A stretch of DNA of 25,479 bases from a virus (lineage: Duplodnaviria > Heunggongvirae > Uroviricota > Caudoviricetes): positions 1 to 25,479 of the IMG/VR virus record IMGVR_UViG_2531839473_000011; one strand, written 5' to 3'. Positions within the stretch are counted from its first letter, which is position 1. Every line of letters starts with the position of its first letter. Shown in pieces: positions 6,821-25,479 of the stretch. The notes under the pieces are model-generated. The model did no database searches, was not told the DNA's origin, and saw only the letters and a list, made by a program, of their open reading frames with translations. The position numbers and the translations under genes are program-made.

Positions 6821-6864
6821 GCTGCCGTTAGTGACTCTTAAGTTGCAACGGTGGCTTTTTTGTT
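6821..6864 (+). terminator. Rho-independent terminator just downstream of the late promoter (tR'-like)
   Basis: 9-bp stem GCTGCCGTT (6821-6829) / AACGGTGGC (6847-6855) with two G-U pairs, then TTTTTTGTTTG. Confidence 0.5.
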
Positions 6865-7399
6865 TGCACAACAGGTAAGAGCATTGAACCCGCAGACCTC
6901 GCGGAATTGGTGAAAGGTGCCGCGCAGTACTCTTATCGTTGTGGTGAATACGCAGGCTGATGCGTTAATCAGGTGAACGAGACACCCGCCGGTCCGTGAT
7001 ATGGCACACCGTGCCGGTCATATCTGCCGCGGTTAGGTTTACGAGGATTTCGTAAAGCTGGTCTAGGGTTAAGCCGTGAAAGCGGAGGAAGTAAAACGAG
7101 GCGTCGGTACACGCCTATCGTCATTAAGTCGGAGTTCAGCACCGACCGCCACAACCCAAACTGAGCCGTAGCCACTGGCTGTCCTGAATTCATCAGTGAT
7201 AGTTATGCTGCGGCCTTCTACACATGACCTTCGTGAAAGCGGGTGGCAGGAGGTTGCGCTAACAACCTCATGCCGTTTTGCCCGTGCATATCGGTCACGA
7301 ACAAATCTGATTACTAAACACAGTAGCCTGGATTTGTTCTATCAGTAATCGACCTTATTCCTAATTAAATAGAGCAAATCCCCTTATTGGGGGTAAGAC

Positions 7400-7723
7400 A
7401 TGAAGATGCCAGAAAAACATGACCTGTTAGCCGCCATTCTCGCGGCAAAGGAACAAGGCATCGGGGCAATCCTTGCGTTTGCAATGGCGTACCTTCGCGG
7501 CAGATATAATGGCGGTGCGTTTACAAAAACAGTAATCGACGCAACGATGTGCGCCATTATCGCCTGGTTCATTCGTGACCTTCTCGACTTCGCCGGACTA
7601 AGTAGCAATCTCGCTTATATAACGAGCGTGTTCATCGGCTACATCGGTACTGACTCGATAGGTTCGCTTATCAAACGCTTCGCTGCTAAAAAAGCCGGAG
7701 TAGAAGATGGTGGAAATCAATAA
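7400..7723 (+). CDS. S: Holin, lambda S-type (class I) with dual-start motif
   Basis: 107 aa, essentially identical to lambda S as I recall it, including the Met1-Lys2-Met3 dual start (ATGAAGATG). The upstream leader also matches the lambda late leader. Confidence 0.92.
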
Positions 7724-8183
7724 TCAACGTAAGGCGTTCCTCGATATGCTGGCGTGGTCAGAGGGAACTGATAACGGACGACAGAAAACCAGAAATCATG
7801 GTTATGACGTCATTGTAGGCGGAGAGCTATTCACTGATTACTCAGATCACCCTCGCAAACTTGTCACGCTAAACCCAAAACTCAAATCAACAGCCGCCGG
7901 ACGTTACCAGCTTCTTTCCCGTTGGTGGGATGCCTACCGCAAGCAGCTTGGCCTGAAAGACTTCTCTCCGAAAAGCCAGGACGCTGTGGCACTGCAACAG
8001 ATTAAAGAGCGTGGCGCTTTACCGATGATTGACCGCGGTGATATTCGTCAGGCAATCGACCGTTGCAGTAATATCTGGGCTTCACTGCCTGGCGCTGGTT
8101 ATGGTCAGTTCGAGCATAAGGCTGACAGCCTGATTGCAAAATTCAAAGAAGCAGGCGGAACGGTCAGAGAGATTGAGGTATGA
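7707..8183 (+). CDS. R: Endolysin, lambda R-type lytic transglycosylase
   Basis: 158 aa, near-identical to lambda R. The start overlaps the end of S as in lambda. Confidence 0.92.
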
Positions 8184-8617
8184 GCAGAGTAACCGCGATT
8201 ATCTCCGCTCTGGTTATCTGCATCATCGTCTGCCTGTCATGGGCTGTTAATCATTACCGTGATAACGCAATCGCCTACAAAGAGCAGCGCGATAAAGCCA
8301 CGTACATCATCGCTGACATGCAGAAGCGTCAACGTGATGTAGCAGAACTCGACGCCAGATACACAAAGGAGCTTGCTGATGCTAACGCGACTATCGAAAG
8401 TCTCCGTGCTGATGTTTCTGCTGGTCGTAAGCGCCTGCAAGTCGCCGCCACCTGTGCAAAGTCAACGACCGGAGCCAGCAGCATGGGCGATGGAGAAAGC
8501 CCAAGACTTACAGCAGATGCTGAACTCAATTATTACCGTCTCCGAAGTGGAATCGACAGGATAACCGCGCAGGTTAACTACCTGCAGGAGTACATCAGGA
8601 CGCAATGCCTGAAATGA
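8180..8617 (+). CDS. Rz: Rz inner-membrane spanin (i-spanin)
   Basis: 145 aa with an N-terminal transmembrane segment and a coiled-coil periplasmic domain. Position and size match lambda Rz. Confidence 0.85.
8373..8564 (+). CDS. Rz1: Rz1 outer-membrane lipoprotein spanin, embedded in Rz in the +1 frame
   Basis: ORF fully inside Rz in another frame, with a signal-like stretch, lipobox-like VSAC and a proline-rich mature region ([14 protein letters not shown]). The true start may be an internal Met. Confidence 0.6.
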
Positions 8618-8652
8618 TCGGGCGATGAAAAACAAAAAAACAGGAGCAATAC

Positions 8653-8928
8653 ATGACTAAGCTTTATCACCGCATCTCAACTTTTCTCTCTGGTTGCTGG
8701 GCGTTTATCACGTCTATTTCGATCGCCATCTTTAGTTTCGGTAGCACAGCGTGCTCGCTTAGTCGGGGTCTGTGGCGTGCTATTTCAGCACTAGCGCCGA
8801 AATTTTTACCTGAAAAGGCTGTTTGGCGAATTGTAGAGCGAATGTGTAGTGAGAGCGTTCGCGAGAAGATTAACGTATTTGGACGTCATCCTCGAAATAC
8901 AGGCGCATTGTGCAGTCCGTTACTGTAG
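8653..8928 (+). CDS. Hypothetical protein (91 aa) with one hydrophobic segment
   Basis: ATG preceded by a strong RBS (ACAGGAGCAATAC-ATG). No recognisable family. Sits at the junction between the lysis and packaging modules. Confidence 0.35.
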   Translation: MTKLYHRISTFLSGCWAFITSISIAIFSFGSTACSLSRGLWRAISALAPKFLPEKAVWRIVERMCSESVREKINVFGRHPRNTGALCSPLL

Positions 8929-9222
8929 TCATTACAAAGCTCATCTACGGGTGGGCTTGATAATGAAACCGGAATTTATTCTGGGCAACCAGTTACGGCA
9001 GTACAGCGAAACAACCCAAGCCAGTAAGTGGGGAAATAACACTGGCAGCCACTGAAAGATGAACCTCCTGCCTTATGGCAAAAAAGATTCTTTGTGGTGG
9101 CGGACTGATGGAAAGACATCGGTTATTGCAGAGACCATTCAATGAGTGGTCTCGACAATAGCTTATACCCTACACGGGATAACTTAACTGATATCCCTTT
9201 TAACGGATAAACGGAGCCAACA

Positions 9223-9465
9223 ATGGCAGAGATTATTCCCATGACTGAAGAACAGAAATTCCAGTTAGAGATTTACAAACTGGTCATGAACCAGAACGCA
9301 GCCGCAGAGGAAGCATTTCAGTTCATTGGCACTGACGAACTGAAGCTTGAGCTATTCAAAATTCACTTCCAGTCAGGTGGCGCTAATTCAGATATCACGA
9401 CCAGAACTATCGAAGCGGTGCGTAAATCGAAGGAAGCGTTAGACCTGTTCACTACCGGAGCATGA
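9223..9465 (+). CDS. Hypothetical protein (80 aa), immediately upstream of the small terminase
   Basis: ATG preceded by AACGGAGCC. Acidic, predicted helical product. Conserved-position small ORF before the packaging genes. Confidence 0.5.
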   Translation: MAEIIPMTEEQKFQLEIYKLVMNQNAAAEEAFQFIGTDELKLELFKIHFQSGGANSDITTRTIEAVRKSKEALDLFTTGA

Positions 9466-9494
9466 TGCTCAACCTGAAATAACAACTAAGTGAG

Positions 9495-9989
9495 ATGAAT
9501 ATGGCAGCACCAAAGGGCAACCGATTTTGGGAGGCCCGCAGTAGTCATGGGCGAAATCCTAAATTCGAATCGCCTGAGGCGCTGTGGGCTGCTTGTTGTG
9601 AATACTTCGAGTGGGTGGAAGCTAACCCGCTATGGGAGATGAAGGCGTTCTCGTATCAGGGTGAAGTGATACAAGAGCCTATCGCCAAGATGCGAGCGAT
9701 GACCATTACCGGCCTCACTCTGTTCATTGATGTGACGCTTGAAACATGGCGCACATATCGCCTGAGAGAAGATTTATCTGAAGTCGTTACGCGAGCAGAG
9801 CAGGTCATCTACGATCAGAAATTCTCTGGCGCAGCCGCTGACCTTCTCAACGCTAACATCATCGCCCGTGATTTGGGCCTCAAAGAGCAGTCGCAAGTTG
9901 AAGACGTGACACCTGATAAGGGAGATCGCGATAAGCGACGCTCTCGTATCAAGGAGCTATTCAACCGTGGAACTGGACGCGATTCTTGA
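9495..9989 (+). CDS. Terminase small subunit (P22 gp3-type)
   Basis: Near-identical to P22 gp3 as I recall it (…[46 protein letters not shown]…). The second in-frame ATG at 9501 may be the true start. Confidence 0.85.
9768..9789 (+). other. pac-like packaging recognition site within the small terminase gene
   Basis: GAAGATTTATCTGAAGTCGTTA, matching the P22 pac sequence as I recall it, located inside the terS coding region as in P22. Confidence 0.6.
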
Positions 9990-11466
9990 TAACCTGAGCG
10001 ACGAAGAGCAAATCGAGTTGCTCGAGCTACTCGAAGAAGAAGAGAACTACCGGAACACACACCTGCTATATGAATTTACGCCATACAGCAAACAGCGTGA
10101 GTTCATCGACGCCGGACATGACTATCCAGAGCGATGTTTTATGGCTGGTAACCAGCTTGGTAAGTCATTTACTGGTGCTGCTGAAGTCGCGTTTCACCTT
10201 ACTGGGCGTTATCCGGGAACAAAAGGCTATCCGGCTGATGGTAAATATGGCGGGGAGTGGAAAGGTAAGCGTTTCTATGAGCCTGTTGTCTTCTGGATTG
10301 GTGGCGAGACAAACGAGACTGTAACCAAAACGACTCAACGCATCCTGTGCGGTCGTATCGAAGAGAATGGTGAACCTGGCTACGGTTCCATACCGAAAGA
10401 AGACATCATTAGCTGGAAGAAGTCTCCTTTCTTTCCGAACCTTGTTGATCACCTTCTGGTTAAGCATCACACGGCTGATGGCGTTGAAGATGGCATTTCA
10501 ATCTGTTACTTCAAACCATACTCGCAAGGCCGTGCTCGATGGCAGGGTGACACAATCCACGGTGTGTGGTTTGACGAAGAGCCACCATACAGCATTTATG
10601 GCGAAGGGCTTACCCGTACCAACAAATACGGGCAATTCTCAATTCTGACGTTTACCCCGCTGATGGGGATGTCTGACGTTGTTACCAAGTTCCTGAAGAA
10701 TCCCAGCAAGTCTCAGAAAGTGGTCAACATGACCATCTATGACGCTGAGCACTACACCGACGAGCAGAAAGAGCAAATCATCGCATCCTATCCTGAGCAT
10801 GAGAGAGAGGCGCGTGCTCGCGGTATTCCTACGATGGGTAGCGGGCGAATATTCCAGATACCGGAAGAGACGATTAAGTGTCAGCCGTTCGAGTGTCCTG
10901 ATCACTTCTACGTAATTGGCGGGATGGATTTCGGATGGGATCACCCGCAGGCGCATGTTCAGCTTTGGTGGGATAAAGACGCAGACACAATCTACGTTTC
11001 ACGCGTGTGGAAGGCGAAAGAAAAAACAGCCGTTCAGGCGTGGGGAGCCGTTAAATCATGGGCGCATAAAGTGCCAACCGCATGGCCTCATGACGGAAAC
11101 CAGCATGAGAAGGGCGGCGGTGAGCAGCTCAAAGGGCAGTATGCAGACGCTGGATTTATGATGTTACAGGAGCATGCGACATGGCCTGATGGCGGTAATG
11201 CTGTTGAGCCTGGCATCACTGAATTGCGCGACATGATGCTCGATGGTCGCTTCAAAGTATTCAACACCTGTGAGCCATTCTTTGAGGAGTTCCGCCTCTA
11301 TCACCGTGATGAAAACGGGAAAATCGTCAAGCTTAACGACGACGTTCTCTCAGCCGTTCGCTATGCATACATGATGCGCCGCTTTGCCAAAATGATGCGC
11401 GACATCAAAAAACCAAAAGAGAAAAAGATACCAGCCCCAATCAGGCCCATCGCACGGAGAACTTAA
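9967..11466 (+). CDS. Terminase large subunit (P22 gp2-type)
   Basis: 499 aa, same length and gene position as P22 gp2. Start (GTG at 9967) overlaps the end of terS. Confidence 0.9.
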
Positions 11467-13632
11467 ATGGCCGACGAAAACAGACTCAATTCCATTCTGT
11501 GTAAGTTTGACGCGGACTGGATGGCGAGCGATGAAGCCAGAACCGAGGCGACAAATGACCTGTATTTTAGCCGAGTGTCGCAATGGGATGACTGGCTATC
11601 AAACTACACCACCCTGCAATATCGCGGACAATTCGATGTTGTCCGCCCGGTTGTCAGGAAACTGGTCGCAGAGATGCGCCGTAACCCTATCGACGTTCTC
11701 TTCAGACCAAAAGACGGCGCTAATCCTGATGCTGCCGATGTGTTGATGGGAATGTATCGTACTGATATGCGCCATAACACGGCAAAAATTGCCGTTAACG
11801 TTGGCGTTCGTGAGCAGATAGAGTCCGGCGTTGGTGCATGGCGTCTGGTCACACAGTACGAAGACAACGACCCAACAAGCAACAATCAGGTAATCCGACG
11901 CCTGCCAATCCATGAAGCCTGCTCACACGTCATATGGGACGCCAACAGCAAGCAGATGGATAAGAGCGACGCTAAGCACTGCACGGTGATTAACGCTTTG
12001 TCACGCAATGGCTGGAAAGAGTTCGCAGAGGATTACGGTATTGATCCTGACACCTTGCCATCTTTCCAGAATCCTAACGATACATGGCTATTCCCGTGGG
12101 TGTCGAATGATGTCGTCTACGTCGCTGAGTATTACGAGGTAGAAGAGAAGAAGGAGAGAGTCTTCATCTACCGCGACCCGCTGACAGGTGAGCCGGTCAG
12201 CTATTACCAGCAGGATATCAAAGACGTCATCGACGACCTGGCTAATCGTGGATTCATTAAGGTAGCAGAGCGCAAGGTGAAGCGTCGGCGTGTGTATAAG
12301 TCGATCATCACCTGCACGCAGATACTGAAAGACCGCGAGAAGATAGCCGGAGAGCATATTCCAATCGTTCCAGTGTATGGTGAATGGTCATTCGCTGGTG
12401 ACAAGGAGTGCTACGAGGGCGTGGTAAGACTGACGAAAGACGGTCAACGCCTTCGTAACATGATCATGTCGTTCAACGCCGATATCGTTGCTCGTTCACC
12501 GAAGAAGAAACCTACCTTCTTCCCTGAGCAAATCGAAGGCTACGAATACATGTACGGTGGAAATGATGACTATCCGTACTATCTGCAGAACAGGACCGAT
12601 GAAAACGGTAACGACCTGCCGATTGGTCCAATCTCCTACATGGAAAACCCTGAAGTGCCGCAAGCCAACGCTTACATGCTTGAGGCTGCCACCAACGCAG
12701 TGAAAGAGGTGGCTAGTCTTGGCGTGGATGCGCAGGCGGCAAACTCTCAGGTCGCTTTCGATACCGTCAATCAACTGAACATGCGGGCAGATCTTGAGAC
12801 ATACGTGTTTCAGGATAACCTGGCTACCGCAATGCGACGTGATGGCGAGATTTATGCCTCAATGGTCAACGATATTTATGACGTTCCTCGTCATGTAACG
12901 CTGACACTTGAAGATGGAAGCGAGAAAGACGTTCAACTCTATGCGCAAGTTGTCGATTATCAGTCCGGCAATGTGGTCACACTCAACGACATTCGCGGTC
13001 GCTATGAGTGCTATACGGACGTTGGGCCATCCTTCCAGAGCATGAAGGAACAGAACCGCGCAGAGATTCAGGAGTTACTCACCAAGGTTCCGCAAGGTAC
13101 TCCAGAGTTCCAGATGCTGATGCTGCAATACTTCACGCTGCTTGACGGTAAAGGCGTCGAGATGATGCGAGAGTACGCGAACAAGCAACTGGTGATGATG
13201 GGGCTGAAGAAACCAGAAACACCTGAAGAGATGGAGATGGTACAGCAGGCTCAACAGCAGCCGCAGCAGCCATCAGCAGAGCAAATTCAGGCGCAGGGCA
13301 TTCTTCTGCAAGGTCAGGCTGAATTGCTCAAGGCAGAGAACCAACAGGCGCAGATTCAGGTTGAAGCCGCCAAGGTTGAAGCCCAAAACCAACTCAACGC
13401 CGCGAAGATTGCAGAAATCTTCAACAATATGGACCTCGACAAGCAGGCAGAACTGCGTGAGTACCTCAAGCTCGTAGGTCAATTCCAGCAACAGCGCAGC
13501 AAAGATGCTCGTGCTAACGCTGAGCTGCTTCTTAAAGATGCAGACCAGACTCATTCACAACGCATGGACTTCGCGAATCTTATGCGTCAAGTTCAAATCC
13601 CCTCCGGCGGAGTAGCCGAGACACCTCAATAA
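11467..13632 (+). CDS. Portal protein (P22 gp1-type)
   Basis: 721 aa with a long C-terminal Q/A/E-rich helical segment (…[55 protein letters not shown]…) typical of the P22 portal barrel. Follows terL. Confidence 0.9.
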
Positions 13633-13645
13633 GAGAGAGTTAATC

Positions 13646-14557
13646 ATGGAACAAACCACCGACATTCAGGCTTCTGAAGAATTAACCCTACCCGGCAATC
13701 ATGCAGCGGCATCTGCTGATGGCTTAGTTGTCGATAATGCCAACGACAACGCAGGTCAGGAAGAAGGCTTCGAGATTGTCCTGAAAGACGATGAGAAACC
13801 AAAACAAGACCCGGCAACTAATGCTGAATTTGCCCGTCGCCGCATCGAACGCAAACGCCAGCGTGAGCTTGAGCAGCAGATGGAAGCGGTTAAGCGTGGA
13901 GAGTTGCCGGAGCACCTGCGGGTGAACCCTGAGTTACCAAAACAACCAGACCCTAACGATTATCTTTCCGAAGATGCACTGGCTAAGTACGACTATGATC
14001 AGAGCCGCGCACTGGCTGCCTTCCAGCAGGCAAACAGTGAATGGCAGATCAAGGCTATGGACGCACGAAGCCAGGCTGTCGCCGAGCAGGGTCGCAAAAC
14101 TCAGGAGTTCACCCAGCAATCAGCTCAATACGTCGAGGCAGCCCGTAAGCACTACGACGCAGCGGAAAAGCTCAATATCCCTGACTATCAGGAGAAAGAG
14201 GATGCATTCATGCAACTGGTGCCGCCAGCAGTCGGTGCCGACATCATGCGCCTCTTCCCGGAGAAATCCGCTGCTCTCATGTATCACCTTGGTGCTAATC
14301 CTGAAAAAACACGCCAGTTGCTGGCGATGGACGGGCAATCCGCGCTGATTGAACTCACTCGACTGTCAGAACGTTTAACTCTCAAGCCTCGAGCCAAGCC
14401 TGTTTCAGAAGCCCCGTTACCTGATGAACCCATTCAGGGACACGCTGTTGCTGCAAATATCTCTGCGATTGAAAAGCAGATGGAAGCGGCAGCAAACAAA
14501 GGGGATGTAGAGACATACCGCAAGCTCAAGGCGCAACTGAATAAAGGAATTCGATAA
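13646..14557 (+). CDS. Scaffolding protein (P22 gp8-type)
   Basis: 303 aa, same length as P22 gp8. Acidic, helical, lies between portal and coat. Confidence 0.85.
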
Positions 14558-15852
14558 TGGCATTAAATGAAGGTCAACTGGTCACGTATGCTCTGGATGA
14601 AATCATCGAAACCGTCCAGAACCTGACGCCAATGGCGTCCAAAGTGACAAAATACACCCCTCCGGCAGAATCCATGCAGCGTTCAAGCAACACCGTGTGG
14701 ATGCCTGTTGAGCAGGAAGCGCCAACCCAGACTGGCTGGGATTTAACTGGCAACGCAACTGGGATTCTGGAACTCTCCGTGAAATGCAACATGGGCGATC
14801 CGGATAACGATTTCTTCGAGCTTCGTGCAGATGACCTGCGTGATGAGCGTTCTTACCGTCGCCGCATCCAGGCATCCGCTAAAAAACTGGCGAATAACAT
14901 TGAGTCAGCAATTGCCAAACAGGCAACTGAAATGGGCTCACTTGTTGTTCACGATACCCGAGCAATTGGTCCATCTACTGGCCTGTCTGGCTGGGATTTT
15001 GTGTCTGATGCAGAGCGCCTGATGTTCTCCCGTGAGCTAAACCGCGATATGGGCATCAGTTACTTCCTGAACCCTGACGATTACCGCAAAGCAGGCCGCA
15101 ACCTGGTAGATGGTGACATCTTCGGGCGCGTTCCTGAAGAAGCGTATCGCAACGGTACTATTCAGCGTCAGATTGCTGGCTTTGATGAAATTCTTCGCTC
15201 ACCGAAACTTCCGGCAGTTACCAAGTCAACCGCTACTGGTGTAACTGTTTCTGGTGCGCAGAAGTTTAAGCCGCAGGCATACACTCTTGATACCGATGGT
15301 AACAAAGAGAACGTCGACAACCGTGTTGCAACGGTGACCGTATCCTCCACCACCGGGTTTAAGCGCGGCGACAAAATCAGCTTCACTGGTGTGAAATTCC
15401 TGTCTCAGATGGCGAAGAACGTGCTGACTGATGATGCTACTTTCTCAATCACCCGTGTGATCGATGGTACTCACATCGAAATCACGCCGAAGCCGATTGC
15501 GCTTGATGACTCTTCACTGACAAAAGAAGAGAAGGCTTACGCTAACGTAAACACCTCTCTTGCTGATTCCACTCCGGTAAACGTTCTGAACGTGGCAACA
15601 ACCACCGCTAACGTGTTCTGGGCTGATGACTCAATCCGTCTGCTGTCTCAGCCGATCCCGGTAACCCATGAACTGTTTGCTGGCATGAAAACGTCTTCCT
15701 TCAGCATTCCTGGTATTGGTGTTAACGGCATCTTCGCAACGCAGGGTGATATCAACACTCTGTCTGGTAAGTGCCGTATTGCTGTGTGGTATTCAGCATG
15801 TGCTGTACGACCAGAGGCAATTGGTATTGGTCTGCCTAACCAGACCGCGTGA
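14557..15852 (+). CDS. Major capsid (coat) protein (P22 gp5-type)
   Basis: 431-codon ORF in the coat position with strong similarity to the P22 coat sequence as I recall it. Confidence 0.9.
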
Positions 15853-15896
15853 TAACCAGAGGGAGCTTCGGCTCCCTTTTTTATATGGAGACAAGC

Positions 15897-16176
<280 letters not shown>

Positions 16177-16199
<23 letters not shown>

Positions 16200-16677
16200 T
16201 TTAGTTCTTGCGGCATTACGTAAGCTCGGTGTGGCATCAAATGCCACGTTAACCGATGTCGAACCGCAGTCTATGGAAGACGGCGTCAACGACCTTGAAA
16301 TGATGATGGCTGAATGGCTTGGCGGTGATGCGTCACCTGGTGTCAACGTTGGCTACATTTTTGCTGATGCAGATGTTGCTCCGGATCCGGGCGATGAGCA
16401 CGGTTTATCAAATAACGCTATCAATGCCGTCATTTTCAACCTTGCCTGCCGCATTGCTCCAGATTATGCGCTGGAAGCGTCTGCAAAACTTATAACCACT
16501 GCCAGATACGGGAAAGAGCGACTCGTCAAACTGTCTGCAATGGATAGGGCAAAGGCCGCTAAATGTAAGTCCGGTTATCCAAACCGTATGCCTGTTGGTA
16601 GCGGTAACCAGTTGGCGAAGTGGAACGGTTGGAATTACTTCCACCGGAAGGAACCTTGCGATAACGGGAGCGAATAA
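16177..16677 (+). CDS. Tail accessory / head-completion protein (P22 gp4-type)
   Basis: 166 aa from ATG 16177, matching P22 gp4 length and sequence pattern (…[16 protein letters not shown]…[10 protein letters not shown]…[14 protein letters not shown]…). The track ORF from 16036 merely extends upstream through the repeat. Confidence 0.8.
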
Positions 16678-18095
16678 TGCCGATTCAGCAACTTCCGCTT
16701 ATGAAAGGTGTCGGCAAAGACTTTCGAAACGCCGATTATATCGACTATCTGCCAGTGAATATGTTGGCTACACCCAAAGAAATCCTCAACAGCAGCGGAT
16801 ATCTTCGCTCATTCCCGGGCATTGCCAAACGTTCTGATGTGAACGGTATATCGCGCGGCGTCGAATACAACATGGCGCAGAGTGCTGTTTATCGCGTGTG
16901 TGGTGGGAAGCTCTACAAAGGCGAAAGCGAAGTCGGTGATGTTGCCGGAAGTGGTCGCGTATCAATGGCGCATGGTCGGACATCACAGGCGGTAGGCGTT
17001 AATGGTCAACTGGTTGAGTATCGCTATGATGGCACGGTTAAAACCGTCTCAAACTGGCCTACAGACAGCGGATTCACGCAGTATGAGTTAGGTTCGGTTC
17101 GCGACATTACGCGCTTGCGCGGGCGTTATGCGTGGTCAAAAGACGGAACTGATTCATGGTTTATCACTGACCCTGAAGACGAATCGCACCCTGACCGCTA
17201 CAGCGCACAATATCGCGCAGAATCGCAGCCTGACGGCATCATCGGCATCGGAACATGGCGAGACTTCATCGTATGCTTTGGTTCATCAACGATTGAATAT
17301 TTCTCCCTGACGGGTGCAACCACCGTTGGTGCTGCTTTGTATGTCGCACAGCCATCTCTTATGGTGCAGAAAGGCATTGCCGGGACTTACTGCAAAACGC
17401 CATTCGCTGATTCTTATGCGTTCATCAGCAATCCGGCAACGGGTGCGCCGTCTGTATACATCATCGGCTCCGGTCAGGTATCACCAATCGCCAGCGCGAG
17501 CATTGAGAAAATCCTCCGCTCCTACACTGCTGATGAACTGGCTGATGGCGTGATGGAGTCTCTGCGATTTGATGCGCATGAGTTGCTGATTATCCATCTT
17601 CCGCGCCATGTACTTGTGTACGACGCATCTTCAAGCGCTAATGGTCCGCAATGGTGTGTGCTGAAAACAGGCCTGTATGACGATGTGTACCGCGCTATCG
17701 ACTTCATTTTCGAAGGCAATCAGATAACGTGCGGCGATAAACTGGAACCCGTGACCGGGAAATTGCAATTCGACATCAGCAGCCAGTATGGTCTTCAACA
17801 GGAACACCTGCTGTTTACTCCACTCTTCAAAGCAGATAACGCCAGAGTTTTCGACCTTGAAGTTGAATCTTCAACTGGCGTTGCGCAGTATGCTGACCGC
17901 CTGTTCCTCTCTGCAACCACTGACGGCATAAATTATGGGCGTGAGCAGATGATTGAGCAGAATGAACCGTTCGTTTACGACAAACGCGTTTTGTGGAAAC
18001 GAGTAGGGCGCATCAGGAAAAACATTGGTTTCAAATTGCGCGTTATCACGAAGTCACCTGTCACTCTGTCTGGCGCTCAGATAAGGATTGAGTAA
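16677..18095 (+). CDS. Tail accessory protein (P22 gp10-type)
   Basis: 472 aa, same length and position as P22 gp10. Start overlaps the gp4 stop. Confidence 0.8.
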
Positions 18096-18943
18096 TGGCG
18101 GATTCGAATCTCAATGTGCCGGTAATCATTCAGGCTACACGACTCGACACATCAGTCCTTCCACGCAATATCTTCTCGCAGTCATATCTGCTGTACGTTA
18201 TTGCACAGGGCACTGATGTTGGTAACGTGGCTAACAAGGCCAACGAGGCCGGACAGGGCGCTTATGACGCACAAGTCAGGAACGATGAGCAGGATGTGAT
18301 TCTCGCTGACCATGAGCAGCGAATTTCTGCTGCGGAAGCAACGCTTGTTAATCATGAGGAGCGAATCAGCCAGGCAGAATCAACTCTTCAGGACCATGAA
18401 ACACGAATAGCTCAGAATGAAAGCGATATTTCGTCGCTTGACACAAGAGTTCAGTCGCTGGAGTCGCAGGTTTCAGACCATGAAACGCGCATCGATGCTC
18501 TGGAGTATGCCACTACTCGCAAGAAGTCGGAGGTTGTTTACTCTGGCGTATCTGTAACCATCCCGACAGCGCCGACCAACCTTGTTAGCCTACTGAAAAC
18601 TCTCACGCCGTCATCCGGCACGTTGGCACCATTCTTCGACACCGTTAACAACAAGATGGTTGTGTTCAACGAGAACAAAACCTTGTTCTTCAAGCTGTCG
18701 ATCGTCGGGACGTGGCCCAGCGGAACCGCCAACAGGTCAATGCAGCTAACATTTTCCGGTTCTGTTCCTGACACACTGGTAAGCAGTCGTAACTCTGCGA
18801 CAACAACCGATAACATCCTGTTAGCTACGTTCTTCAGCGTGGATAAAGACGGCTTTCTTGCCACAAATGGCAGCGCGTTAACCATTCAGTCGAATGGTGC
18901 GGCGTTTACTGCCACAACCATCAAAATCATTGCGGAGCAGTAA
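18095..18943 (+). CDS. Tail needle protein (gp26-type) with an extended C-terminal domain
   Basis: The N-terminal ~60 aa resemble the P22 gp26 N-terminus as I recall it. This is followed by tandem 14-residue coiled-coil repeats and a C-terminal region unlike P22 gp26. Confidence 0.75.
18305..18514 (+). repeat. Five diverged tandem 42-bp repeats encoding 14-residue units in the tail needle
   Basis: Protein units [14 protein letters not shown] / [14 protein letters not shown] / [14 protein letters not shown] / [14 protein letters not shown] / [14 protein letters not shown]. Confidence 0.6.
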
Positions 18944-19398
18944 TGATTCAGTTCAAACCAACGCGAAACATCGACCTGATCGAAGCAGTCGGAAATCACC
19001 CTGACATTATTGCCGGAAGCAACAATGGTGATGGATACGACTACAAGCCTGAATGCCGTTACTTTGAGGTTAACGTGCACGGTCAGTTTGGCGGAATTGT
19101 TTACTATCAGGAGATTCAGCCGCTGACATTCGATTGCCACGCCATGTACCTGCCAGAGATTCGCGGCTTCAGCAAGGAAATCGGGCTGGCGTTCTGGCGA
19201 TACATTCTGACTAACACCACCGTTCAGTGCGTCACATCGTTCGCTGCACGCAAATTCCGCCACGGGCAGATGTACTGCGCAATGATTGGCCTTAAGCGTG
19301 TAGGAACCATCAAGAAATACTTCAAAGGCGTGGATGACGTGACATTTTACAGTGCTACACGCGAAGAACTAATCGACTTCCTGAATCACGGGAGATAG
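18943..19398 (+). CDS. Virion assembly protein at the gp14 position
   Basis: 151-aa ORF between the tail needle and the ejection proteins. Assigned by synteny only. Confidence 0.45.
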   Translation: MIQFKPTRNIDLIEAVGNHPDIIAGSNNGDGYDYKPECRYFEVNVHGQFGGIVYYQEIQPLTFDCHAMYLPEIRGFSKEIGLAFWRYILTNTTVQCVTSFAARKFRHGQMYCAMIGLKRVGTIKKYFKGVDDVTFYSATREELIDFLNHGR

Positions 19399-19400
19399 CC

Positions 19401-20093
19401 ATGTTATATGCATTTAAGCTGGGCAGAAAACTGCGCGGCGAGGAACCTTATTGCCCTGAAAAAGGCGGGAAAGGTGGCAGTTCTGATAAAAGTGCAAAGT
19501 ATGCCGCAGAAGCTCAGAAGTATGCCGCAGACCTGCAAAATCAGCAGTGGCAGACGATCATGAAAAACCTTGCTCCGTTCACGCCTCTTGCGGAGCAGTA
19601 TGTTAACCAGCTTCAGAACCTTTCCAGTTTAGAAGGTCAGGGGCAGGCACTTAATCAGTATTACAACTCTCAGCAGTATAAAGACCTTGCAGGTCAGGCT
19701 CGTTACCAGAGTCTTGCTGCTGCGGAGGCGACGGGTGGACTTGGTTCGACAGCCACAAGCAATCAACTGGCTACGATCGCGCCGACACTCGGTCAGTCTT
19801 GGTTATCAAATCAGATGAGCAATTACAACAATCTGGCAAACGTTGGGCTTGGTGCGCTGCAAGGTCAGGCAAACGCCGGGCAGACGTACGCCAACAACAT
19901 GAGCAGCATTGCACAGCAAAGCGCAGCTCTTGCCGCTGCTAATGCCAATAAACCATCAAGTCTTCAGACTGCAATTAGCGGTGGCACGTCTGGTGCGATT
20001 GCCGGTGCAGGTCTTGCCAGCCTTTTGGGAACATCAACACCTTGGGGCGCTGGCATTGGTGCTGGTATTGGATTGCTTAGCTCGTTGTTTTAA
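19401..20093 (+). CDS. Ejection (internal virion) protein, gp7-type
   Basis: 230 aa. Q/A/N-rich with a C-terminal glycine-zipper-like hydrophobic segment (GAIAGAGLASLLG…GAGIGAGIGLL). Assigned by position. Confidence 0.6.
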   Translation: MLYAFKLGRKLRGEEPYCPEKGGKGGSSDKSAKYAAEAQKYAADLQNQQWQTIMKNLAPFTPLAEQYVNQLQNLSSLEGQGQALNQYYNSQQYKDLAGQARYQSLAAAEATGGLGSTATSNQLATIAPTLGQSWLSNQMSNYNNLANVGLGALQGQANAGQTYANNMSSIAQQSAALAAANANKPSSLQTAISGGTSGAIAGAGLASLLGTSTPWGAGIGAGIGLLSSLF

Positions 20094-20102
20094 GGGGTAA
20101 TC

Positions 20103-21398
20103 ATGGCTACTTGGCAAGGATCAAATGGCGGATTGTTAGCTGGTATCGGCGGCGTCAACTCAAACGCTCCGAGCGTAAATGACATCGGCAATACGCTTCA
20201 GCTTATCAGGCAGAACAATGATATTGAGCGTTCAGGCGCTAACAATGTTGGGCTGACTGCTTTGCAAGGTCTTTCAGGTATTGCAGGGGTGTTTCAGCAG
20301 GAAAAGCAGGCTCAGCGGCAGAAAGAATTTCAGCAGGCGTACGCTAATGCTTATGCGTCTGGTGATCGCGGTGCTTTGCGTCAGTTGGCTACTCAATATC
20401 CAGACCAGATTGAATCCGTTCGTAAAGGCATGGGATTCATTGATGAAGATCAGCGTAATTCTATCGGCACCTTAGCGGCTGGCGCACGCCTTGCGTCATC
20501 GTCTCCAGAAGCAATGCAATCATGGCTGCAAAACAACGCCAAGGAACTGACTCGCGTCGGTGTTGACCCTAACAGCGTTGCTCAGATGTATCAGCAGAAC
20601 CCTTCAGGATTTGGTGAGTTTGTTGATCACCTTGGGATGGCTGCGCTTGGTCCGATTGATTACTTCAATGTTCAGGACAAGATGGCTGGTCGTGAAATTG
20701 ACCGAGGCAGACTGGCAGAGACAATCCGCAGCAATCAGGCCGGAGAAGCACTAACAGCTCGAGGTCAGGACATCCAGATACGTGGACAGAACATCAGCGC
20801 ACAGAATGCTGCTCTTTCCCGCGAAATACAAAGAGCAGAATTACAAGAAAAGGCTCTGGACAGACAAATAGCCAGAGAAAGCAATCAGTTAAAGCTTGAA
20901 GAGCTAAAACAGAAACAGGCAGATGTTCGGCAAAAGGCTGACATAGCCCGCGCTGACAGGCAGGCCGCTGCTCAGGGTGCAGTTGATACGTTCAGCACCG
21001 CGCTTGATTCTCTCAACGAGATAGAGCAAAGCCCCGGCCTTTCAAAAGCAGTAGGAATTCGCTCAGCGTTTCCGACAGTTCCTGGCTCTGATGCGGCTAA
21101 CTTTGAAGCAAGGCTCGACACCTTTAAAGCTCAAACATTCCTTCCTATGGTGCAGTCCCTGAAGGGTATGGGCGCTCTTTCAGATGCTGAGGGTAAAAAA
21201 TTATCCGATGCGGTTGGTGCCCTAAGCCCCAAAATGAGTGAAAAGGCTTTTCGTGACTCTATCGGAAAGATTAGAAATCAGCTTGAAAGCAAGTTGAGCA
21301 CTGTTAAAAAACAGTTTGATTATCAGGAGCCGGTGCAGAATATTCCAAGGCAACAATCTACTACTGGCAGTAACTTTTCTTCACTATGGGGTGATTAA
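20103..21398 (+). CDS. Ejection protein, gp20-type
   Basis: 431 aa, first of two large low-complexity proteins after gp7. Assigned by position and composition. Confidence 0.55.
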   Translation: MATWQGSNGGLLAGIGGVNSNAPSVNDIGNTLQLIRQNNDIERSGANNVGLTALQGLSGIAGVFQQEKQAQRQKEFQQAYANAYASGDRGALRQLATQYPDQIESVRKGMGFIDEDQRNSIGTLAAGARLASSSPEAMQSWLQNNAKELTRVGVDPNSVAQMYQQNPSGFGEFVDHLGMAALGPIDYFNVQDKMAGREIDRGRLAETIRSNQAGEALTARGQDIQIRGQNISAQNAALSREIQRAELQEKALDRQIARESNQLKLEELKQKQADVRQKADIARADRQAAAQGAVDTFSTALDSLNEIEQSPGLSKAVGIRSAFPTVPGSDAANFEARLDTFKAQTFLPMVQSLKGMGALSDAEGKKLSDAVGALSPKMSEKAFRDSIGKIRNQLESKLSTVKKQFDYQEPVQNIPRQQSTTGSNFSSLWGD

Positions 21399-23395
21399 TG
21401 GCTAAAGCATGGAAAGATGTTATCGCCTCTCCACAGTATCAGGCGTTAGCACCAGAACAAAAAGCGCAGGCTCAGGAGCAATACTTCAATGAAGTCGTGG
21501 CCCCGCAAGCCGGAGAAAATGCAGAGCAGGCTAAGCAAGCTTTCTATGCAGCCTATCCATTGCCATCTGTGCAGCCAGTGGAGACACAGCAACCAGTAGC
21601 ACAGCAACAACCACAGCAAAGTGGATTTATGTCTGATCTTGGTGAAGCAGTGAAAGAGACTGGTCGCGGACTGGTGCAGGCTGGCGTGAACGTGGCAAAC
21701 ATACCTGCATCAGTTGCCGATGCTGTAACAAGCGCGGCTGCATGGGCTGGCGGTAAACTCGGCATTGGCGATGGAACATATCAACCCGCGCCACGAGTAA
21801 CAACGCATGGATTAGAGCAGGACTTTGGCCTTCAGCAAGGTGCGCTGACTCCACAAACGACAGAGGGCAGGGTATTTGCTGAAGCATTGCCTTACCTCAC
21901 ACCTGCCGGCGTTGAGAGAGCGGCAACACAGGCACCAACACTTGCTGGTCGAATTGCTCAGGGTGCAACTCGCCTTCTCGCTGAAAACGCAGTTGGATCA
22001 CTTGCTGCAAACAGTGTGAAAGATGATGCGGAAGCACTAGCCACCGACTTAGGCGTTGGCGTTCTGGCTGGCGGAGCTATTAACGCTGCCGGACGTGGAT
22101 TAGGTGCTGCTTATCGTGGAGTTCGTGGTGCGATAGCGCCAGAAGCGCAACAGGCTATCAGGTTTGCAGAGCGTGAAGGAGTGCCTCTGCACACCACAGA
22201 CCTGTTACAACCTACTTCCCGCGTCGGAAAAATGGCGCAGACTACAGCAGAAAATATCCCTCTGGCTGGCACAAGCGGAATGAGAGCAACGCAACAGGAA
22301 GCGAGAAGCCAGTTGGTGCAGAGATTTGCTGATAAATTCGGTGAGTATGATCCAGCGGTTGTTATTGACAGCCTTAAAGCGAAAACATCAGGAATTCGTC
22401 GTGCTGCCGGTAATCGACTGGAGCAGGTTCAGAATGCTATGGCTGGAGTAAACATTCAGCCTGTGCGAGCAATTCAGCAGATTGATACTGAGATATCTAA
22501 CCTGCAGAAGCTTGGTAAGGTCGCTGATAACGAGACGATTTCAAAACTTCAATCCTATCGTGATGAGCTTATTCGCAATGCTGGTCCTGATGGTCCGGTA
22601 AATCTGGATTTGAAGCAATTAAGCGATCTGCGCAGCCAGTTCAGAATGGACGTGAAGGGGGAACGACCAGTGTTACCAAACCGTTCCGATGCTGCCATTC
22701 AGCGCGTTTACAAGGCGATGACAGACGATATCAATGGTGCCATTGGTCAGAATCTTGGCAATGATACTCTCCGTAAATATCAGCAGGCCAATGCCGTCTA
22801 CGCTGACGAAGCGGCGAAACTAAAGAATACCAGGCTGAAGAATGTTCTCATGAAAGGCGACCTGACACCGGAAGTTGTCAACAACATGCTATTCAGCAAG
22901 AACAAATCGGAAATTAAGACGCTGTATAACTCAGTTGGTCGTGTTGGCAGGGCGCAAATGCGCAATGGCATCATTGGAAAGGCGATGGAGAAATCTGGCG
23001 GATCCCCTGACCAGTTCCTTCGGCAGCTTAACATCCTGCAAAACCAGACTGGCATCACATTTAAGGGGCAGGACGCTGCTTATCTGAAAGGATTAAAAAA
23101 CTACCTGCAATCCACGCAGCAGGCTGCAAAAGCGGCAGTAACAACACCCACAGGGCAGCAAACTATCCCGTTCATAATTGGGTATGGGACGGCAATGAAC
23201 CCGGCGACAACTGGCGCAGCAGTAAGCTACGGACTTCTTACTCGCGCCTATGAGAGCGAGCCATTCAGAAATGCAATGCTACGAATGGCAAATACCCCAC
23301 GCGGATCAACAGCGTTTGAGAAAGCCATGCAGCAGGCACAAAAGGTAATTAACGCTATGACGCAGGGGGCTAAGTCTGATGCGTTGTCAGAATAG
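21398..23395 (+). CDS. Ejection protein, gp16-type
   Basis: 665 aa, immediately upstream of the tailspike. Assigned by position and composition. Confidence 0.55.
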   Translation: MAKAWKDVIASPQYQALAPEQKAQAQEQYFNEVVAPQAGENAEQAKQAFYAAYPLPSVQPVETQQPVAQQQPQQSGFMSDLGEAVKETGRGLVQAGVNVANIPASVADAVTSAAAWAGGKLGIGDGTYQPAPRVTTHGLEQDFGLQQGALTPQTTEGRVFAEALPYLTPAGVERAATQAPTLAGRIAQGATRLLAENAVGSLAANSVKDDAEALATDLGVGVLAGGAINAAGRGLGAAYRGVRGAIAPEAQQAIRFAEREGVPLHTTDLLQPTSRVGKMAQTTAENIPLAGTSGMRATQQEARSQLVQRFADKFGEYDPAVVIDSLKAKTSGIRRAAGNRLEQVQNAMAGVNIQPVRAIQQIDTEISNLQKLGKVADNETISKLQSYRDELIRNAGPDGPVNLDLKQLSDLRSQFRMDVKGERPVLPNRSDAAIQRVYKAMTDDINGAIGQNLGNDTLRKYQQANAVYADEAAKLKNTRLKNVLMKGDLTPEVVNNMLFSKNKSEIKTLYNSVGRVGRAQMRNGIIGKAMEKSGGSPDQFLRQLNILQNQTGITFKGQDAAYLKGLKNYLQSTQQAAKAAVTTPTGQQTIPFIIGYGTAMNPATTGAAVSYGLLTRAYESEPFRNAMLRMANTPRGSTAFEKAMQQAQKVINAMTQGAKSDALSE

Positions 23396-23559
23396 CTTTG
23401 CAAACACCAGGAACGTGCAAAAACCAAATATATAGAGCGCAATATTCAACAGATCTCTTTGCATAGACTCATCTCATAATTAACAAATCATAACTGACAT
23501 TAGTGCAATGCTGGGCAAGTTGCATCTTGTTCGGCATTGCTACGTCCGGAGCAAATTAA

Positions 23560-25479
23560 ATGACAGACATTACAGCCAATGTTGTAGTGAGTATGCCTTC
23601 GCAACTCTTCACTATGGCGCGTTCTTTTAAAGCCGTAGCCAATGGTAAAATTTATATCGGTAAAATTGACACTGACCCGGTAAATCCTGAAAACCAGATT
23701 CAGGTTTATGTGGAGAACGAAGACGGCTCTCACGTTCCTGTATCGCAGCCAATCATCATTAACGCTGCTGGATATCCGGTATATAACGGACAAATTGCCA
23801 AGTTCGTCACTGTGCAAGGTCACTCGATGGCTGTGTATGACGCATTTAATGCACGACAGTTCTACCACCCAAATGTACTCAAGTACGATCCAGATCAATT
23901 CAAGCAGCAGCTAGCAAGCTCAGAAGATGGAATGGGTGACGCACTAGTTGCAGTTAAGCAGCCATATATCGGCTCAATAGCTTTAACTCAACATGATAAA
24001 AATACCAACTTCATTTCAGCCAAGGATTTCGGTGCAACAGCTGACGGAACTCTGCATCCACTCAGCGAGAAATTCTCCACACTATCAGCGGCGCAGGCTG
24101 TTTATCCATTCGTAACATCACTAACTCAGTCTCTTGACTATGCAGGCATACAGGCCGCAATTAATACAGGGCGGAATGTATTATTGACATCTGGAACTTA
24201 CTTCGTAAATGCAACGATAGAGATGAATTCAAACTGCACAATAAATGGCGAAACAAACAGCAACATAAATAGGCCGGAAACTTTCATAGCAGTAATAGGA
24301 AATATAGCTTGTTTCCATTACCACGCAGCGTTTAATACAATAAATATTGAAAATGTCTATATTTTTTACGATGGAGGACGCCCTACATCACCTACTGGCA
24401 ATGATGGTAAAATTGGCATTCTAATTGATGGAGGAACTACTTCACCAGGCGTTATGCACATTAAAAATGTTGAGGTTGATGGTGCATGGTGGGCCATATA
24501 TGATGACTCTGGAAATTACCTAACAAAGTATACCCAGGTATGGGCGAGGAGAGTTGCGCATGGTTTCTATAAGGCGAACGGAACGACAATACAGTGGGAT
24601 ACATGTTATGTGCTGGATGCAGCACAGGCATGGTATGTTGTAAATTGCCTGTCTCCTCAGCTAATAAACTGTGCAGGAGACCAGATCACAGTTGACGGGT
24701 CGCAATATACATTTGATTCCTCAGGGTTATATTTTTCTGGATGTAAGTGTCTTACTATTACAGGGTATGATGGTGAGTCTAATATAATAAAAAATACAAA
24801 TGGAATTACTGCGTCGTATATAAAACTTAATGATACTATTGCCCATATATCAGGATTGGCCGGGCATGGAAACTCAATGCAAACAACGGGGAGTGGGACA
24901 GCAGCATTTATCTTTGCAACAGGCACAAGCATTGTTAACATAAAATCAAGTACCGATAGCTTCCTTGATAGCGAATCAATAACCTACACTGGCTCTGGAT
25001 ACCCAAACACATTGCTGACAGACTCAACAGCAAAAATAATTGCTGAGGGATGCCGGTTTAAGGCTCCGACTGGTGGGACTCCTGTAATATCAACTTACAG
25101 CACAGGGAATGGAGTATTTACTGACTGCTCATTAACTGGGACGCAAACTTCAGGCTCATATGTTGAATCACGAAGCTCTGCAGGTAATCAGTTGCCAGCA
25201 GTGTACACAGCGAAAGGAACTCAGGCTGTTGCAGCTAACGTAGCAACTACGTTGTTTGAACTGCCAAATAGCCAAGGGATGTACCTGATAAGCGTTTGGG
25301 CAGAAAGCAGTGGAACAAATTTCTCTTCGCTTCAGCTTGCCATGTGGGACGGAACAACACTTACTTTAACTCCGCTTAAGTCAGGAGGGTTGATATCATT
25401 TACAGTGACAGGAAGGATTGTAACCATCACAAGCCAGGGAACAACAACATTTAACTGGACATACACCAAGGCAGGGTGA
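23560..25479 (+). CDS. Tailspike protein: P22-type N-terminal head-binding domain fused to a different receptor-binding domain
   Basis: The first ~110 aa resemble the P22 gp9 head-binding domain as I recall it. The remainder is G/S/T/N-rich with a KDFGATADG-type motif seen in beta-helix glycanases. The ORF ends with TGA at the last three bases of the window. Confidence 0.85.

Follow-up and report, generated by a model that had tools for sequence, protein, structure and literature searches.

A tail needle gene of the Sf6 type in a mosaic P22-like phage sequence

The window is the whole stretch of phage DNA analysed (25,479 nucleotides; IMG/VR record IMGVR_UViG_2531839473_000011). Positions 18095..18943 of its plus strand hold an ATG-initiated ORF (282 codons followed by a stop) that was described in an earlier note as a tail needle gene, its product combining a gp26-like N-terminus, five tandem 14-residue units and about 140 C-terminal residues unlike the tip of the P22 needle. 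The question raised by this locus is whether the needle is an uncharacterised one, as that description implied, or belongs to a known type, and what its repeats and its C-terminal domain may do. The ORF was found at exactly these coordinates; its orthologues are gene 9 of Sf6 and gene 26 of P22.

A tblastn search of phage records gave 98.9% identity between the needle and Sf6 gp9 over residues 1-282. In a direct comparison, 279 of the 282 amino acids and 816 of the 849 nucleotides (96%) are identical; the majority of the 33 nucleotide differences lie at third codon positions. The Pfam profile PF16532 (Phage_tail_NK, "Sf6-type phage tail needle knob"; cut-off, 27 bits) is matched over its entire length (profile positions 1-175 of 175) with a score of 390.2 bits. 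The remaining Pfam matches to the needle are weak, sub-threshold coiled-coil look-alikes. Because of the full-length identity, the match to knob structures, the PF16532 match, the gene order, the collinearity with Sf6 and the ligand residues, the product is almost certainly a trimeric tail needle of the Sf6 type, from a podophage or prophage of the P22-like group (Lederbergvirus) with E. coli or Shigella as host; nothing contradictory to this identity was found. Sequence identity, domain layout, conserved ligand residues and gene order are direct observations. The gene is therefore already known, as a slightly different allele of the characterised Sf6 gp9: apart from three substitutions the identity is complete, structures of the knob are available (PDB 3RWN, 4K6B), and the implied novelty falls away. 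Its significance beyond correct annotation is small: the structure and genetics of an almost identical protein, common in E. coli prophages, have been worked out.

Three domains are recognised. The N-terminal plug domain (18095..18304, plus strand; approximately residues 1-70) corresponds to the helical hairpin that seals the channel of the gp10 tail hub; it is assigned by its match to gp26 and its role is taken from Sf6 (PMC9728967). Residues 3-64 match the P22 gp26 plug fragment 8EAP_B (E 1.7e-27), and residues 1-137 align without gaps with P22 gp26 chains (PDB 4ZXQ, 3C9I, 2POH; E ~1e-43), which bears out the gp26-like N-terminus; identity to P22 gp26 over the same residues is 58% (tblastn). 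In an alignment of seven needles, the largest share of the invariant columns falls in the N-terminal third. The coiled-coil shaft (18305..18514, plus strand; residues 71-140) consists of the five 14-residue units and is assigned by its self-identity at a shift of 14 residues and by its alignment with the helical core of P22 gp26.

The C-terminal knob (18515..18940, plus strand; residues 141-282) is assigned as a TNF-like jelly-roll trimer from 3RWN, 4K6B and PF16532. It is identical at 151 of 153 positions to the crystal structure of the Sf6 knob (PDB 3RWN; E 5e-90) and at about 150 of 152 positions to that of the HS1 knob (PDB 4K6B). Residues that bind L-glutamate, and a Ser-Arg-Asn triad at the tip of the knob, have been named (PMC3741392); E146, K200, S248, D250 and the triad S231-R232-N233 are all present in the window knob at the same positions, residues 231-233 corresponding to S266-R267-N268 of HS1. 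Conservation extends to both the glutamate and the phosphate ligand residues. No counterpart of the P22 or HK620 tip was found in the C-terminal part (approximately residues 141-282) by PDB, tblastn or multiple-alignment comparisons, as the earlier note had claimed for P22. The PDB and tblastn alignments to the P22 and HK620 gp26 proteins end at residues 137-152, and in the multiple alignment the C-terminal parts have scattered columns only in common; the needle is not one with a P22-type tip (gp26 residues 141-233). The alignment proposed in that note, with the needles of P22, Sf6 and HK620, is full-length for Sf6 and covers plug and shaft only for the two gp26 proteins.

The needle is encoded between homologues of gp10 and gp14 in a P22-like late operon, as established by Pfam and by the collinearity with, and annotation of, Sf6. 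The upstream neighbour (16677..18095, plus strand; 472 amino acids) is the tail hub, homologous to P22 gp10 and Sf6 gp8 (PF11134, Phage_stabilise; 982 bits); the downstream neighbour (18943..19398, plus strand; 151 amino acids) is a DUF2824 protein homologous to P22 gp14 and Sf6 gp10 (PF11039; 179 bits). The sequence TAATG occurs at both junctions, the stop codon of gp10 overlapping the needle ATG and the needle stop codon overlapping the gp14 ATG; such overlaps are usual where the late genes of a phage are densely packed in an operon. A gp4 homologue (16036-16677, plus strand; Pfam P22_Tail-4) precedes the hub gene. Its mechanically called ORF has 213 codons, the P22_Tail-4 match begins at residue 49 and Sf6 gp7 has about 160 residues; translation probably begins at an ATG inside this ORF, whose upstream part overlaps a small gene like Sf6 gene 6. 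Homologues of gp7 (19401-20093) and gp20 (20103-21398), both recognised by Pfam, and of gp16 (21398-23395), which has no Pfam match and is assigned by position and collinearity with Sf6, lie downstream, followed by a tailspike gene (23560-25479, plus strand; 639 amino acids) with a P22-type head-binding domain (PF09008, residues 1-113). A tRNA scan of the window found none.

The phage is a mosaic. Positions 16672-23901 (7.2 kb) form a block collinear with 6830-14060 of Sf6 (95.3% identity). The head genes (8924-17996) share 95% identity with those of phage HZ41, which is overall the nearest relative of the window; they have no DNA-level match to Sf6 and also follow phages of the IME10 type (95%). 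HZ41 matches residues 1-148 of the needle only, with 54% identity, so its tip is not of the knob type. Since the head is HZ41-like, the tail Sf6-like and the HZ41 tip not a knob, the needle goes with the module of Sf6-type tail and ejection genes. The HZ41 and Sf6 matches overlap across 16672-17996, which places the exchange point in or near gp10. At the other end, the tailspike ORF stops exactly at the end of the window and the DNA is Sf6-like up to 23901. The receptor-binding body of the tailspike is unrelated to those of Sf6, P22 and HK620. With the tailspike of Escherichia phage vB_EcoP-611R6 it shares 98.7% identity; with tailspikes or fibres of the unrelated E. coli phages JeanPiccard, SU57 and Veterinaerplatzvirus the identity is only 37-40%.

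The three differences from Sf6 gp9 are S92 (R in Sf6), A261 (T) and A270 (S); none coincides with a named ligand residue. S92 is common to phages Kapi1 and Louie, and at this position all 13 cluster members compared agree with the window. A261 is a minority state, T being found in 12 of the 13, and A270 is the state of HS1. The tblastn matches to Louie, N7, Kapi1 and phiKp_30 stop at residue 268. A different C-terminus in Kapi1 and Louie was considered and rejected: both genes translate to 282 amino acids with the same C-terminus, so that for these two the early stop reflects no true difference of sequence and probably stems from the default low-complexity filter of BLAST.

The 14-residue repeat is real at the protein level. 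Shifting residues 71-140 by 14 against themselves gives 25 identities in 56 positions; shuffled sequences give 4.5 +/- 2.05, and none of 20,000 shuffles reaches 25. Periodicities of 7 and 14 residues run through the shaft. Ile, Val or Leu occupies positions 7 and 14 of each unit (except for a Thr at the final position of the last one), His or Leu position 3, and Ala, Asn or Leu position 10. Judged from the sequence, positions 3/10 and 7/14 form the a/d core pattern of a coiled coil and the units are two-heptad units of a predicted trimeric coiled-coil shaft; the period would be 14 rather than 7 because the core alternates a His-type residue with a small or Leu residue. P22 gp26 has the identical register, which begins at the same ADHE motif, but resembles itself less (15 of 63 positions at a shift of 14), and the needle of phage Gally (317 amino acids, HS1 type) has 7.5 two-heptad units. 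Shafts of 11 heptads in Sf6 and P22 and of 16 in HS1 have been published (PMC3741392); the window shaft has the length of the Sf6 one. The P22 register, the Gally units and the published shafts imply that the repeats are not peculiar to the window gene.

By analogy with Sf6 and P22, the literature on which provides the trimer state, plug function, release and kinetics, the following mechanism is proposed. The needle would be a homotrimer plugging the tail hub in the virion, as suggested by cryo-EM of Sf6 (PMC9728967) together with the near-identity of sequence. The N-terminal helical hairpin (approximately residues 1-60) would plug the channel of the hexameric gp10 hub and retain the packaged DNA in the head. 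Residues ~64-140 would form a three-stranded coiled-coil shaft of 11 heptads reaching beyond the tailspikes, and residues 141-282 a TNF-like jelly-roll knob at the distal tip, binding three L-glutamate molecules. At infection, the needle would be the first tail part to touch the outer membrane and would then be released, opening the channel for the DNA and for the ejection proteins (homologues of gp7, gp20 and gp16, encoded just downstream); its tip may influence the speed of DNA delivery without choosing the host. The published work on which this model draws includes the location of the Sf6 knob in the virion by cryo-EM and the plug role of the Sf6 N-terminal domain (both PMC9728967). The knob has been described as a TNF-like jelly-roll trimer with three L-glutamate molecules and a phosphate bound (PMC3741392). 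Release of K+, a proxy for DNA entry, is slower with an HS1-knob chimera and with a foldon-tipped needle, so the tip affects the kinetics of DNA delivery; an Sf6-knob chimera that includes most of the Sf6 shaft has near wild-type K+ release kinetics (PMC3741392). The suggestion that the C-terminal domain alters envelope penetration has limited published support to this extent, in that some changes of the needle tip slow K+ release.

Two other readings of the gene were weighed. According to one, the 14-residue array is a hot spot of length change, through replication slippage or unequal recombination, and gives needles of variable length. The high significance of the protein repeat and the occurrence of the same knob on shafts of 16 rather than 11 heptads (Gally, HS1; PMC3741392) speak for it, and in the P22 gp26 construct 4LIN (300 residues) a further part of the shaft is matched, which fits a lengthened shaft that remained able to fold. 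At the DNA level, however, Tandem Repeats Finder (minimum score 30) found no array over the shaft; its sole result in the gene is an unrelated 9-nt, 3-copy stretch (18224-18250). A repeat search picked up four of the five units through a core of 23 nt (65-78% identity; spacings of 42, 42 and 84 nt), but the whole units share, pair by pair, 14-28 of 42 nucleotides (33-67%), and the longest exact word common to any two is 11 nt. A tandem array serving as a slippage substrate was accordingly rejected. The 13 full-length cluster members compared are all of exactly 282 amino acids; this constancy and the divergence of the DNA units make slippage-driven length variation unlikely. The 16-heptad shaft of HS1 is only 67% identical to that of Sf6 (PMC3741392), a divergence more in keeping with an old variant or an exchanged module than with recent slippage; because of this low identity, the 11- and 16-heptad forms look like old, diverged variants. 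Of the suggestion that the repeat DNA permits length variation, the part that stands is the longer shaft found in the family; the array as a hot spot in this gene is very improbable.

The other reading takes up the secondary receptor contact suggested in the earlier note: the knob would bind a second receptor in the outer membrane, for instance OmpA or OmpC, as a receptor-binding domain, and so contribute to host range. The receptor-binding knobs of adenovirus and PRD1 have the same fold as the needle knob (PMC3741392), OmpA and OmpC are secondary receptors of Sf6 (PMC9728967), and in a 2013 survey of the P22-like group knob-type needles came only from Escherichia and Shigella phages (PMC3741392). 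Homologues of the knob are nevertheless found in phages of Salmonella, Aeromonas, Shewanella and Klebsiella as well, and the genetic evidence is adverse. P22 chimeras carrying the Sf6 or the HS1 knob infect Salmonella normally, so that the knob has no host-specificity role in the laboratory; mutants of the L-glutamate site have no phenotype; and a foldon-tipped needle is functional, which counts against an essential contact between the tip and a secondary receptor (all PMC3741392). The authors of that study call such an essential contact "not completely correct". A receptor-binding knob is on this evidence unlikely, though less so than the hot spot. More speculatively, the A261 allele in combination with the non-Sf6 tailspike body may be the sign of a knob functionally adapted to another E. 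coli envelope or, alternatively, the His-rich two-heptad units may be a pH-sensitive release trigger; the chance that this holds is slight in the extreme. If the A261 adaptation were true, the knob would have a host-contact role that P22 chimera experiments in Salmonella could not detect. The reading preferred here remains that of an ordinary Sf6-type needle, in which the tip would affect the speed of delivery.

Needles of this type are widespread. NCBI lists the exact 282-residue sequence on 89 contigs under the name "tail needle knob protein [Escherichia coli]", and the 90%-identity protein cluster of the needle has 3,620 members. This cluster also lists proteins of 153-159 amino acids of the "DUF2824 family", i.e. 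homologues of gp14, the product of the downstream gene; these are probably misplaced, through chaining via fused or mis-called ORFs. DNA matches occur in 917 of 5,426 complete E. coli genomes, 486 of which cover at least 80% of the needle gene; among the best matches listed, copies are annotated as "tail needle knob protein". Knob-type needles are also encoded by Salmonella phages S9-5 and ABTNLsp11242 (61% identity, full length), Aeromonas phage 4_4512 (57%), Shewanella phage ZP9 (49%) and Klebsiella phage phiKp_30 (97%), which makes their hosts more diverse than in the 2013 survey.

Compared with known systems, the window needle is closest to gp9 of Shigella phage Sf6 (NP_958185.1; 3RWN), with which it shares its length of 282 amino acids, three-domain layout, neighbours and ligand residues. 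It differs by the S92, A261 and A270 states, and the phage around it is a mosaic whose head genes and tailspike body are not those of Sf6. The needles of E. coli prophage HS1 (4K6B) and phage Gally have a knob about 99% identical to that of the window, A270 included, and a nearly identical plug; they differ by their 317 amino acids and 16 heptads, against 282 amino acids and 11 heptads. The gp26 needles of P22 and HK620 (PDB 2POH, 3C9I, 5BU5) have a homologous plug and shaft, the same heptad register and the same position in the late operon, but they end in a short unrelated tip (residues 141-233) in place of the knob, similarity being undetectable past about residue 150.
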